Positions 29,301 to 32,300 of a DNA stretch of 64,000 bases are shown here, piece by piece. This stretch comes from Escherichia coli (lineage in GTDB: Bacteria; Pseudomonadota; Gammaproteobacteria; Enterobacterales; Enterobacteriaceae), in assembly GCF_046105845.1 (NCBI RefSeq), contig NZ_CP151004.1. One strand, given 5' to 3'. Made by a program: the position numbers. The first letter of the stretch is position 1. Every line of letters begins with the position of its first letter.

Positions 29301-32300
29301 CGTCTTATCGACGTATTGCTGCGCCCGGAAGTGCTGGTCTTTGAGCCGCTGTGGACGGTGATCCCCGGCAACAAAGCGATTCTGCCGATCCTCTGGTCGC
29401 TGTTCCCGCACCATCGCTACCTGCTGGATACCGATTTCTCCGTGAATGATGAACTGGTGAAAACCGGTTATGCAGTGAAACCGATCGCTGGTCGCTGTGG
29501 TAGCAATATCGACCTGGTCAGCCATCATGAAGAGGTGCTGGACAAAACCAGCGGTAAATTTGCCGAGCAGAAAAACATCTATCAGCAACTGTGGTGTTTG
29601 CCGAAAGTGGACGGTAAATACATTCAGGTATGTACCTTCACCGTTGGCGGCAACTACGGTGGGACGTGTTTGCGCGGTGATGAATCACTGGTCATTAAAA
29701 AAGAGAGTGATATTGAACCGTTAATTGTGGTGAAAGAGTAATACATGTTGTAGCAACTCCGCACTGATTATGAAGAATAATCAGTGCGGGGATTAATCAA
29801 AATATTCAATATTTATATATTCAAATATTTATTCATTTCATGTGTGAATGTATTAACCAGTGGAATGCCTGTGTTTTGATTATTTCTAAAGGTTTTGAAT
29901 GAATGCTTATTATCTGATACACAAGAAATAACACTCTTTTTATCGTTAAAAAATGATATTTCACTTTGCCCACGCCGTTAAAGTCACTGATAATGCGTCC
30001 GTTCGTAAATTCAAAATGGCGTAATCTAATATATGCTAAATTTATTTGTTGGCCTTGATATATACACGGGGCTTTTGTTATTACTTGCTCTGGCATTTGT
30101 GTTGTTCTACGAAGCAATCAATGGTTTTCATGATACGGCGAATGCGGTGGCAACCGTTATTTATACTCGTGCCATGCAACCACAACTTGCTGTGGTGATG
30201 GCGGCATTTTTTAACTTTTTTGGCGTATTGCTAGGCGGACTTAGCGTTGCCTATGCCATTGTCCATATGTTGCCAACCGATTTGTTGCTGAATATGGGGT
30301 CAACTCACGGCCTGGCGATGGTCTTTTCCATGCTGCTGGCGGCGATTATCTGGAACCTGGGAACGTGGTTCTTTGGTTTACCGGCCTCCAGTTCGCATAC
30401 CTTGATTGGTGCGATTATCGGCATCGGTTTAACCAACGCGCTGTTAACCGGCTCATCGGTGATGGATGCGTTAAACCTGCGTGAAGTGACCAAAATTTTC
30501 TCCTCGCTGATTGTTTCCCCTATCGTCGGCCTGGTCATTGCGGGTGGTCTGATTTTCCTGCTGCGCCGTTTCTGGAGCGGGACGAAAAAGCGTGACCGTA
30601 TTCACCGCATTCCGGAAGATCGCAAAAAGAAAAAAGGCAAACGTAAGCCGCCATTCTGGACGCGTATTGCGCTGATTGTTTCCGCTGCGGGCGTGGCGTT
30701 TTCGCACGGCGCGAACGACGGGCAGAAAGGGATCGGCCTGGTGATGCTGGTACTGGTGGGGATTGCCCCTGCTGGTTTCGTCGTCAATATGAATGCGTCC
30801 GGCTATGAAATTACCCGTACCCGCGATGCCGTCACCAACTTTGAACACTATCTGCAACAGCATCCTGAACTGCCGCAGAAGTTGATTGCGATGGAACCTC
30901 CATTGCCTGCGGCATCGACTGATGGCGCGCAAGTGACGGAGTTTCACTGTCATCCGGCAAATACCTTTGATGCGATTGCGCGCGTTAAAACGATGCTGCC
31001 AGGCAATATGGAAAGCTACGAGCCGTTAAGCGTGAGTCAGCGCAGCCAGCTGCGCCGCATTATGCTGTGCATCTCTGATACTTCCGCGAAGCTGGCGAAA
31101 CTGCCAGGCGTCAGTAAAGAAGACCAGAACCTGCTGAAAAAACTGCGCAGCGATATGTTAAGCACCATTGAGTACGCACCGGTATGGATCATCATGGCGG
31201 TAGCACTGGCGCTCGGCATTGGCACCATGATTGGCTGGCGTCGTGTAGCGATGACCATCGGTGAGAAGATTGGTAAGCGCGGCATGACGTATGCGCAAGG
31301 CATGGCGGCACAAATGACGGCGGCAGTGTCTATCGGCCTTGCCAGTTATATTGGGATGCCCGTCTCCACAACACACGTCCTCTCGTCTGCGGTAGCAGGG
31401 ACGATGGTGGTGGACGGCGGTGGGTTACAGCGTAAAACGGTAACCAGCATCCTGATGGCGTGGGTGTTTACTTTACCGGCGGCGATTTTTCTTTCTGGTG
31501 GGTTGTACTGGATAGCATTGCAGTTGATTTAACCTTCCTGAAAATGCCCGGTCCTGGCGATCGGGCATTTCCATTTTTGACTAGTGATAACCACGCGCGG
31601 TCATAAAATCCGTAATCGCTTTTTCTGCATCAACCAGCACCTTTTCCAGTGGCTGATTGGCGTCGATATCAACCAGTTGTGCACCACCAAAGGTTAACTG
31701 TGGCGTTATGGCTATCTTTCTTGCCAGCGATTCCCTTTTGTGGTCAGGCTTACGCGCGCAGGCCACGTCTAGATCGACATTGAGTTTGATGACCAGATCA
31801 GGCTTATGGCTCGCCATCCAGTGAAACGCTTTACGTTCCTGGCTTGCCAGCCATGAGACAAACCGGCCGCCTTCAACGTTAGGCGGGAACACTGTACCAT
31901 CGTAAGCGCCAGGAATTTGGTCCTGAGGATAACGGTCGGTTAGAACAATTAACCCGCGACGACGACAGGCAAGCATATGACGAAAGCGCAGTAAGCGACG
32001 GGCGACAAACGCTGTAATTACCAGCGCCGGAACAGGGCCAGGCATTTTTTTTGCTGTTTTCACCTGATTTCGTTCAATTGTTTTATGTAAGGATTTTCCC
32101 ATCAACGGTAATTTTGTCACTGCACGACCGACATTTCCGGCCTGTTTTCCTAAATGAACTCTTTCGGCTGCACCATATTTTTCGACAACGGTAATGAGAT
32201 GTTCACACACCGTTGACTTGCCTGAACCATCGCTACCAATAACGGCAATTAATGGAGGTGTTATTGACTGCATGAATATATCCTTTAATTTAAATATCCA

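Follow-up and report, generated by a model that had tools for sequence, protein, structure and literature searches.

The gss-pitB spacer of Escherichia coli as a probable composite of a gss 3'-end hairpin, AT-rich junction DNA and an ancestral pit promoter

In the window, by which we mean the whole 64,000-nt stretch of Escherichia coli DNA that was analyzed (contig NZ_CP151004.1), a spacer of 291 nt separates gss from pitB (29742-30032; gss stops at 29741 and pitB begins at 30033). We read this spacer as a composite of the 3'-end hairpin of gss, a lineage-specific AT-rich junction, and an ancestral pit promoter and leader, and give this reading a probability of about 0.6. The hairpin marks the end of the gss mRNA and probably protects it. 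Both hairpin and spacer are ordinary and largely documented already. The spacer can be divided into three parts, the hairpin, an AT-rich core (approximately 29800-29905), and a conserved block (29906-30032), and the following features will be referred to.

27882-29741, + strand: gss, the CDS of the bifunctional glutathionylspermidine amidase/synthase (ORF list and RefSeq annotation of matching E. coli loci)
29757-29791, + strand: gss 3'-UTR stem-loop, with a 15-bp stem, the loop GAAGA at 29772-29776, and a U·G pair at 29758
29791-29800, + strand: equivalent of the gss mRNA 3' terminus; the MG1655 peak corresponds to window 29798-29799, 7-8 nt past the stem
29800-29905, no strand: variable AT-rich core of about 25-30% G+C, fast-evolving and Escherichia-specific junction DNA (composition and Escherichia alignment)
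29906-29947, + strand: Escherichia pitB block, CTTATTrTCTGATAC..AAG.AATAAC...TTTTTATCG (alignments), a candidate site for a pitB-specific regulator
29948-30032, + strand: ancestral pit promoter and leader (promoter scan and homology to the MG1655 pitA upstream region)
30033-31532, + strand: pitB, inorganic phosphate transporter with 81% amino-acid identity to PitA

A preliminary description of this DNA had recorded a 12-bp perfect hairpin after gss, a strong stem without a U-tract. Its arms (29759-29770 and 29778-29789) are correct but stop one base pair short: the repeat is perfect over 13 bp (29759-29771 and 29777-29789, with 5 nt separating the arms), and no other perfect short-range inverted repeat of the window is as long. 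By chance, perfect repeats of at least 13 bp with a loop of 3-9 nt are expected about 0.007 times per 64 kb, or about 0.0002 times per spacer. The stem is indeed strong, with a dG of -24.9 kcal/mol as compared with -7.0 +/- 2.2 in shuffled sequences (z = -8.3; 0 of 200 shuffles as good), and the U tract is indeed absent, since only three U occur among the 8 nt after the stem where our criterion was at least five. This 3' tail, AUUAAUCA, has A or U at six of its eight bases. The stem starts after a gap of 15 nt from the gss stop codon, its base is GC-rich (CCCCG/CGGGG) and its top AU-rich, and no A-tract lies 5' of it. A terminator scan of both strands left the site uncalled, and a re-implementation of the scan agreed. 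A bidirectional terminator was considered and rejected: the - strand fold is weaker (-20.3 kcal/mol) and also without a U tract, and there is no convergent gene.

The gss transcript of strain MG1655 ends at this hairpin. Published Term-seq/RNAtag-seq data (TRS; PMC10687069, Supplementary Data 2-4) list a 'Primary' gss 3' terminus at 3136604-3136613 (- strand), with its peak at 3136605/6; the 52 nt 5' of the terminus contain exactly the same hairpin, there given -25.9 kcal/mol, and the gss 3' UTR is 58 nt. In that study the label 'Primary' is restricted to genes transcribed alone or last in a transcription unit. A gap-free alignment moved the terminus to window coordinates, and transcript 3' ends at the hairpin, on which the preliminary description had made its reading depend, are accordingly on record. 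The gene is weakly expressed, and the searchable entries of the Adams 2021 and TERMITe supplements include none for gss or pitB.

Of 5426 complete E. coli genomes, 5399 (99.5%) have kept the hairpin, and the gss-pitB junction as a whole is intact in only 5207; the hairpin is also present in all Escherichia species sampled, while the adjoining AT-rich core diverges freely. Ten distinct Escherichia variants of the hairpin made up the covariation set. Cells that should pair do so in 95% of cases across these variants, versus 28-47% when the partners are slid, and at two stem pairs both partners have changed in a compensatory manner (U-A<->C-G and A-U<->G-C); 3 of 500 shuffles reached the same covariation score. 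Five changes alter one side of a pair and keep it paired, each by giving G·U or U·G when the + strand is read; on the - strand, or were the repeat a DNA palindrome, each would give an A·C mismatch. The strand asymmetry of the substitutions amounts to 5 versus 1 events (about p = 0.1). Such compensatory and wobble substitutions within the genus speak for selection on the structure of the RNA. Together with the published primary terminus, the covariation bears out the suggestion that the hairpin is a 3'-end element of the gss RNA.

One could instead regard the inverted repeat as a DNA operator, the palindromic site of a dimeric regulator of pitB or gss, as a perfect 13-bp palindrome with a 5-bp center at the head of a promoter-containing spacer might suggest. 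We consider this extremely improbable. The repeat and the pitB promoter are approximately 240 nt apart, the repeat lying upstream and directly after the gss stop; an RNA 3' end maps to it, and what its variants keep, by G·U wobbles and by compensatory changes in pairs, is the pairing of the RNA rather than any half-site sequence. Genera without pitB, moreover, have non-homologous hairpins at the same place after gss. Outside Escherichia, 70 of 75 Enterobacteriaceae have a hairpin of -15 kcal/mol or better, not homologous to this one, within 90 nt of the gss stop (median offset from the stop, 15 nt), which argues that a 3' hairpin is a conserved requirement of gss and not of pitB. A canonical U-tract terminator follows gss in 32 of these 75, and gss orthologues with canonical terminators at the equivalent place occur in Enterobacter, Lelliottia, and some Citrobacter.

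It is also conceivable that the hairpin has no function and survives as a relic, such as a scar or terminal repeat, of the rearrangement or mobile element that brought pitB-yghT beside gss. Synteny with other genera breaks off a few nucleotides past the gss stop, the hairpin sequence is specific to Escherichia, and IS1 is drawn to the region. Against this stand the conservation described above next to a core that diverges, substitutions that are compensatory or wobble, and a reproducible RNA 3' end that coincides with the hairpin; it is, in addition, a single-copy element that matches no repeat family, and we regard a relic as very unlikely. Membership in the REP/BIME or another repeat family was rejected, as the median number of places per genome is one across 5402 E. 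coli genomes. Like the REP/BIME elements that stabilize mRNA 3' ends, an intergenic hairpin at the end of the gss transcription unit could block 3' exonucleases, but REP/BIME is a multi-copy family with a consensus that is absent here.

A stable 3' hairpin with a defined 3' end would also suit a small regulatory RNA derived from the gss 3' UTR, and the density of read starts is 0.40 in the 58-nt UTR versus 0.08-0.09 in the gss CDS (TRS, PMC10687069). However, the U-rich tail for Hfq and a conserved single-stranded seed are both absent, and the 15 nt between stop and stem differ in sequence between Escherichia species. A search of Rfam 15 at permissive thresholds returned no family (the best hit scored 29 bits, the threshold being 49), and all sub-threshold matches were to unrelated Gram-positive sRNAs or snoRNAs. 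In TRS Supplementary Data 4, the gss row reads FALSE in three of three flags, which probably mark 3'-UTR-derived candidates. We therefore think such an sRNA highly improbable.

How the polymerase stops is a separate matter. The hairpin may be a genuine intrinsic (Rho-independent) terminator despite its poor U tract, in which case folding of the GC-rich base 7-8 nt behind the active site, together with the weakness of the A/U-rich RNA:DNA hybrid formed by AUUAAUCA, would free the transcript. The element resembles intrinsic terminators in its stem base, its 5-nt loop, its A/U-rich tail, its position 15 nt after the stop, and its 3' end at the classic release distance; an exonuclease stall would yield the identical distance, so that the last point does not discriminate. 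The canonical terminators found at the equivalent place in other Enterobacteriaceae also favor this mechanism, as does the lack of a convincing C-rich Rho-loading tract 3' of the hairpin. In 78-nt windows up to 29939, C/G is 0.57-0.9 and the C content 10-20%; C/G first exceeds 1 at 29902-29979, where it reaches 2.0, though with just 16 C in 78 nt, and a clear Rho-loading (C>G) tract directly 3' of the hairpin is not evident from the sequence. Unlike intrinsic terminators, however, the gss hairpin has only three U in its 8-nt tail, escapes the consensus scan, lacks a preceding A-tract, and carries an AU-rich top on a 15-bp stem that is longer than usual. U-poor hairpin ends, furthermore, typify Rho-dependent E. 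coli transcripts (PMC6061677), and we hold intrinsic termination to be possible but unlikely.

In that work (Dar and Sorek 2018, PMC6061677), Rho-dependent transcripts of E. coli have their 3' ends just past stable, U-poor stem-loops. The gss stem-loop shares with these protective structures a terminator-like size and energy, a location directly 5' of a sharp 3' end in vivo, a U-reduced tail, a stem without an A-tract, and a weakly expressed gene, whereas the mild enrichment of C over G downstream of the Dar and Sorek ends is unseen in the first 100 nt or so at this locus; we place it beside them by structure, 3' end position, and expression level. In the composite reading, the hairpin would be transcribed as the 3' UTR of a monocistronic gss mRNA and would set its stable 3' end. 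The polymerase would halt at the hairpin or farther on, either at the A/U-rich tail, where the hairpin would cause inefficient termination, or through termination or cleavage deeper in the untranslated AU-rich spacer. Exonucleases acting 3' to 5' would then trim the RNA until the stem blocked them, with about 7-8 nt left beyond it, and the gss mRNA would so be protected.

The preliminary description had also pointed to a markedly AT-rich stretch before pitB, and the composition agrees: 200-nt windows in the spacer have 28-30% G+C as against 50-57% in the flanking genes, and the spacer 3' of the hairpin has 27.8%. The first 150 nt of pitB are likewise low in G+C (41%). Such composition is not peculiar to the spacer, as three other parts of the window are at or below 32% G+C (at about 32251, 43001-43151, and 54001-54351). 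No homology to the window was found in the sequence 3' of gss in other genera, and the AT-rich core is a recurrent IS1 target, with strain KMi029 carrying an IS1 here. Three small ORFs within the spacer have no Pfam matches. A 94-aa antisense ORF, annotated by PGAP as 'hypothetical protein' in one genome, was rejected as a hidden gene because stop codons break it in several relatives (E. albertii, E. whittamii, Escherichia sp. E1V33, and the bovine isolate HB6).

The junction DNA would have arisen when a pitB-yghT module landed beside gss in Escherichia, and its AT-rich core is most likely, within the composite reading, a silencer or insulator bound by nucleoid proteins between the two transcription units; we treat it as a candidate for such a segment. 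According to published work, the pitB locus lies in a tsEPOD, a transcriptionally silent domain of protein occupancy, and a lac promoter inserted there is silenced; here too a very AT-rich spacer adjoins a poorly expressed and frequently inactivated pitB. The spacer has no match to the high-affinity H-NS motif TCGWTWAATT at up to one mismatch, the total for the window being below chance expectation, and the reported silencing concerns the other end of pitB: according to the primer table of Bryant 2014, the 'pitB' reporter site is the pitB/yghT junction, outside the gss-pitB spacer. One might propose that the junction acts as a combined insulator, in which nucleoid-protein filaments would stall polymerase arriving from gss, and could so produce a sharp gss 3' end without a U tract or obvious Rho-loading site, while the same filaments would silence the pitB promoter, the core of which is essentially that of the constitutive pitA. 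This modestly novel proposal we regard as improbable.

Over its last 85 nt the spacer is homologous to the promoter and leader of pitA in Enterobacteriaceae, with the same -35 and -10 elements, spacing, and TCAAAATGGCG motif, and low-level transcription of pitB would start from this ancestral promoter. It consists of an A-tract, a -35 of TTGCCC (29966-29971), a spacing of 17 nt, and a -10 of GATAAT (29989-29994), a 9/12 match to sigma-70, and predicts a transcription start near 30001. Promoter-like sites in the region are no more numerous than expected by chance; TTGCCC-17-GATAAT is invariant across Escherichia, and pitA and pitB share 93% identity over the 42-nt promoter core, compared with 76% over the coding sequences. 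Promoter and leader are conserved in the pitA genes of five genera (among them Salmonella, Klebsiella, Enterobacter, and Cedecea) and in pitB-type paralogues. An antisense promoter-like site (29981->29953) was set aside as being at chance level.

The region upstream of pitB differs from that of pitA in being much more AT-rich (32% G+C over 200 nt, versus 39.5-45% at pitA loci with the same core promoter) and in having the block at 29906-29947, which is found at all Escherichia pitB loci, is missing upstream of pitA, and would lie at about -95 to -55 from the predicted start. Published accounts describe pitB as unexpressed under normal conditions and pitA as constitutive. The suggestion of a regulated pitB promoter agrees with the conserved sigma-70-type promoter, homologous to that of pitA, in the pitB-proximal part of the spacer; control by phosphate (Pho) is contested. 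Papers citing Harris 2001 disagree on pitB, describing either repression by the Pho regulon at low Pi or expression only under phosphate stress; pitB has no PhoB ChIP-seq peak and no PhoB-dependent RNA-seq change (PMC10294691), and by eye there is no good Pho box with 11-bp repeat spacing in the pitB spacer. Sigma-S holoenzyme SELEX gave an in vitro binding peak in the pitB<-gsp spacer (PMC5493296).

No canonical Shine-Dalgarno sequence precedes the pitB ATG. The leader instead has a near-invariant motif, TCAAAATGGCG(TAA), at 30011-30024, that includes a two-codon mini-ORF, ATG GCG TAA, at 30016-30024. In Enterobacteriaceae, the motif UCAAAAUGGCG is situated 6-10 nt 5' of pitA and pitB-type start codons, the usual place of a Shine-Dalgarno sequence, and it makes the mini-ORF AUG-GCG-UAA in eight of nine sequences. 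The motif may control translation of the Pit phosphate transporters, as an element not described so far; this is the second modestly novel reading, and we rate it as improbable as the insulator.

Beyond correct annotation, the finding has little significance. Because pitB has its own inherited promoter and the gss mRNA ends at the hairpin, it would be wrong to treat gss and pitB as an operon; gss forms a transcription unit of its own, with a conserved stem-loop that lacks a U-tract at the end of its mRNA, and pitB is a paralogue that retains a constitutive-type core promoter and yet is reported to be poorly expressed. The locus offers a natural example of a 3'-end hairpin held by compensatory evolution while the neighboring junction DNA drifts. 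If either the insulator or the leader-motif reading were true, it would be a small addition to our understanding of U-poor terminators and of the regulation of Pit transporters.

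The stretch is chromosomal E. coli DNA. A 551-nt query spanning the junction found a match in 5415 of the 5426 complete E. coli genomes, where gss (bifunctional glutathionylspermidine amidase/synthase) is annotated first and pitB (inorganic phosphate transporter) second, and the nearest strain to the window is 118UI (99.8%). The features are as follows.

Features of the gss-pitB junction (window coordinates)
27882-29741: gss
29742-30032: gss-pitB spacer
29757-29791, + strand: hairpin, with an RNA stem of 15 bp
29759-29771 / 29777-29789: perfect 13-bp inverted repeat within the hairpin, arms separated by 5 nt
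about 29800-29905: variable AT-rich core, diverging freely across the aligned Escherichia species
29906-30032: block that is near-invariant in the same alignment
29966-29994, + strand: predicted promoter TTGCCC-17-GATAAT
30011-30024: leader motif TCAAAATGGCG, with mini-ORF ATG GCG TAA at 30016-30024
30033-31532: pitB

This hairpin is the stem-loop at the 3' end of the gss mRNA and is already included in a published table of 3' termini. The 12-bp arms noticed in the preliminary description are present, and the element is bigger than stated there, as the RNA stem gains one U·G and one C-G pair beyond the 13-bp repeat. No longer perfect short-range inverted repeat occurs anywhere in the window, the chance expectation for repeats of this kind being about 0.007 per 64 kb, and the hairpin alone has a predicted folding energy of -24.9 kcal/mol against -7.0 +/- 2.2 for shuffles (z = -8.3). 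The stem is trailed by AUUAAUCA, and a terminator scan of both strands made no call at the hairpin. An Rfam search with the hairpin returned no family, the top scores being far under threshold and to unrelated families. A REP/BIME-type repeat is ruled out since the hairpin is single-copy in E. coli genomes.

The 3'-terminus study of E. coli MG1655 (TRS), which applied a single analysis to term-seq and RNAtag-seq data, lists a "Primary" gss terminus (a label reserved for genes transcribed alone or last in their unit) at 3136604-3136613 (-), with its peak at 3136605/6, a statistic of 0.966, a hairpin of -25.9 kcal/mol and a 58-nt 3' UTR; the 52 nt upstream of it are UUGUAGCAACCCCGUACUGAUUAUGAAGAAUAAUCAGUACGGGGAUUAAUCA (PMC10687069). 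Gap-free alignment with MG1655 places this terminus at window 29798-29799, 7-8 nt past the stem, and the RNA element proposed in the preliminary description therefore does coincide with transcript 3' ends.

This position fits both release at a weak intrinsic terminator and the stalling of an exonuclease, although we consider it unlikely that the end arises by a purely intrinsic mechanism at the hairpin. The closest described class is that of the Rho-dependent E. coli transcripts of Dar and Sorek (PMC6061677), whose sharp ends directly follow stable stem-loops that resemble terminators in energy but are poorer in U; a section title there states that such stem-loops stabilise Rho-dependent mRNAs. 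At gss the sequence past the hairpin is rich in A/U, not in C, and offers no evident Rho-loading site. On our reading of the model for that class, the ends would arise by exonucleolytic trimming back to the stem-loop. Minor rivals aside, the rest of the weight falls on a scheme in which the polymerase would stop, or the RNA would be cleaved, downstream, followed by trimming to the protective stem. The stop might alternatively be polymerase stalling on AT-rich DNA coated by nucleoid protein, or trimming might follow an endonucleolytic cut in the AU-rich untranslated RNA.

In an alignment of E. coli strains and four other Escherichia species, the stem is kept while its sequence varies. One pair is C-G in the window and 118UI and U-A in most E. 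coli; the following pair is A-U in E. coli and G-C in Escherichia sp. E1V33 and E. whittamii, where the loop also differs (CAAAA). Single changes yielding G·U or U·G occur in the bovine isolate HB6, 07_3986, E. albertii, Escherichia sp. MOD1-EC7003 and the window, while a single strain, NMBU-W13E19, carries an A·C mismatch, apparently an intermediate on the way to the whittamii state. Among the 10 distinct variants, paired cells amount to 95%, versus 28-47% with partners slid by 1-3 columns; two stem pairs show both-sided changes, and the covariation score was equalled by 3 of 500 shuffles. The five single changes that preserve pairing all do so as wobble pairs, and only on the + strand (on the - strand or in duplex DNA they would be A·C mismatches); selection may therefore act on the sense (gss) RNA, with five events against one being only suggestive. 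Window position 29758 is T, which makes the second stem pair U·G, and is C in all other sampled E. coli having the C-G variant, a minority class of about 172 genomes. Across the hairpin, the whole 5426-genome collection contains no identical 46-mer (best match 97.8%).

Outside Escherichia, we compared gss loci at one per species (80 loci, 75 of them non-Escherichia). Adjacency of gss to pitB is confined to Escherichia, and nothing resembling the window was found downstream of gss in other genera. In 70 of the 75 non-Escherichia species a non-homologous hairpin (<= -15 kcal/mol) occurs less than or equal to 90 nt after the gss stop, the median distance being 15 nt. A canonical U-tract terminator follows gss in 32/75 (e.g., Enterobacter, Lelliottia, several Citrobacter); the remaining hairpins, including those of Salmonella, Klebsiella and Raoultella, have no U tract, as in Escherichia. 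These comparisons indicate that the gss transcription unit conserves a hairpin at its 3' end whether or not pitB is adjacent.

The AT-rich spacer consists of junction DNA and an inherited pit promoter. Overall, the observation in the preliminary description holds, and its cautious reading is supported. Beyond the hairpin the spacer has about 28% G+C, as against 50-57% in the flanking genes, and comparable AT-richness is found in three more places in the window (G+C <=32% at about 32200-32500, the divergent yghT/yghS spacer, 43001-43350 and 54001-54550). Its small ORFs had no Pfam match; just one of them has been annotated, as an antisense "hypothetical protein" in a single PGAP genome, and it was rejected as a gene because stop codons interrupt it in other species of Escherichia as well as in HB6.

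The last 85 nt of the near-invariant block are homologous to the MG1655 pitA upstream region, and a 42-nt core, ATATTTCACTTTGCCC-CGCCG--AAAGTCACTGATAATGCG, has 93% identity between pitA and pitB, versus 76% for the coding sequences. The predicted promoter, the sole + strand promoter-like site from the scan, lies inside this core. Its -35/-10 region and the leader motif are conserved in all retrieved loci, comprising pitA of Salmonella, Klebsiella, Enterobacter and Cedecea and two pitB-type paralogues. The motif shows no variation upstream of pitB, or of pitA in those four genera (also at L089, about 1620-1633, and L094-L099, about 480-495). It lies 6-10 nt ahead of the start codon, in the usual position of the Shine-Dalgarno sequence that is lacking here, and forms the two-codon ORF AUG-GCG-UAA in 8/9 sequences, the stop being lost in the Citrobacter amalonaticus paralogue. 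This motif (UCAAAAUGGCG), common to pitA and pitB, may act in the translation of Pit transporters as an element not described before.

Segment 29906-29947 (CTTATTrTCTGATAC..AAG.AATAAC...TTTTTATCG) is conserved in Escherichia only and absent upstream of pitA, and a comparison by eye with known operators gave nothing convincing; it is a candidate site for a regulator specific to pitB. Every Escherichia pitB locus has it, and so even E. albertii and E. whittamii do, in which the neighbouring core has diverged.

As for regulation, genomic SELEX found sigma-S holoenzyme binding in the pitB<-gsp spacer (PMC5493296). Classical Pho-regulon control was claimed by Harris 2001, as relayed in citing papers, but PhoB ChIP-seq/RNA-seq contradicts this, with neither binding nor regulation of pitB (PMC10294691). 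The gene is described as unexpressed in normal conditions, and its locus is within a transcriptionally silent extended protein occupancy domain in which an inserted lac promoter was silenced, the primer table placing the reporter at the pitB/yghT end (PMC4191405). Upstream G+C is 32% for pitB versus 39.5-45% for pitA, with the pitA-type core promoter retained, and the 5' coding region is also more AT-rich in pitB; silencing from AT-rich flanking DNA is therefore a reasonable candidate explanation of low pitB expression, although an H-NS motif search of the spacer gave no supporting match.

The hairpin is kept in 5399/5426 genomes and the entire junction is intact in only 5207 (about 200 lack it in intact form), because IS1 insertions and deletions strike the spacer and the pitB start. 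Recurrent IS1 insertions in different strains (retrieved loci L093, about 290-1060; L091, from about 93; L003, 2150-2847; L007, 876 onward; L008, 1596-2293) correspond to window about 29680-30210, falling in the hairpin right arm, the AT-rich core directly 3' of it and the first ~60 codons of pitB; IS1 is also found in the gss 3' end, with downstream DNA missing. As pitB is furthermore truncated in HB6 and frameshifted in strain 90-3040, it appears dispensable; the AT-rich junction is an IS1 hot spot.

A second hairpin (31539-31573; 15 nt, 87% complementary, TGAAAATGCCCGGTC / GATCGGGCATTTCCA) lies between the convergent pitB and yghT. Both its flanks are rich in A/T, and it probably terminates transcription in both directions; it is also the site at which Bryant 2014 placed the "pitB" reporter cassette.

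All the parts are known kinds of elements. Both pitB-type paralogues (L094 and L099, compared with window 30033-32273), which come from other Enterobacteriaceae, are 82-84% identical to PitB and about as distant from PitA. Like Escherichia pitB, they are followed by a convergent yghT homologue (80-83% identity), whereas their upstream neighbours differ (a GntR/aminotransferase gene in one, yafT in the other). These arrangements therefore indicate that pitB-yghT is a module that carries an ancestral promoter of its own and occupies different chromosomal sites by genus, its left boundary in Escherichia being placed at about 29937-29948. It looks like an old two-gene module that moved, not a recent Escherichia duplication of pitA.
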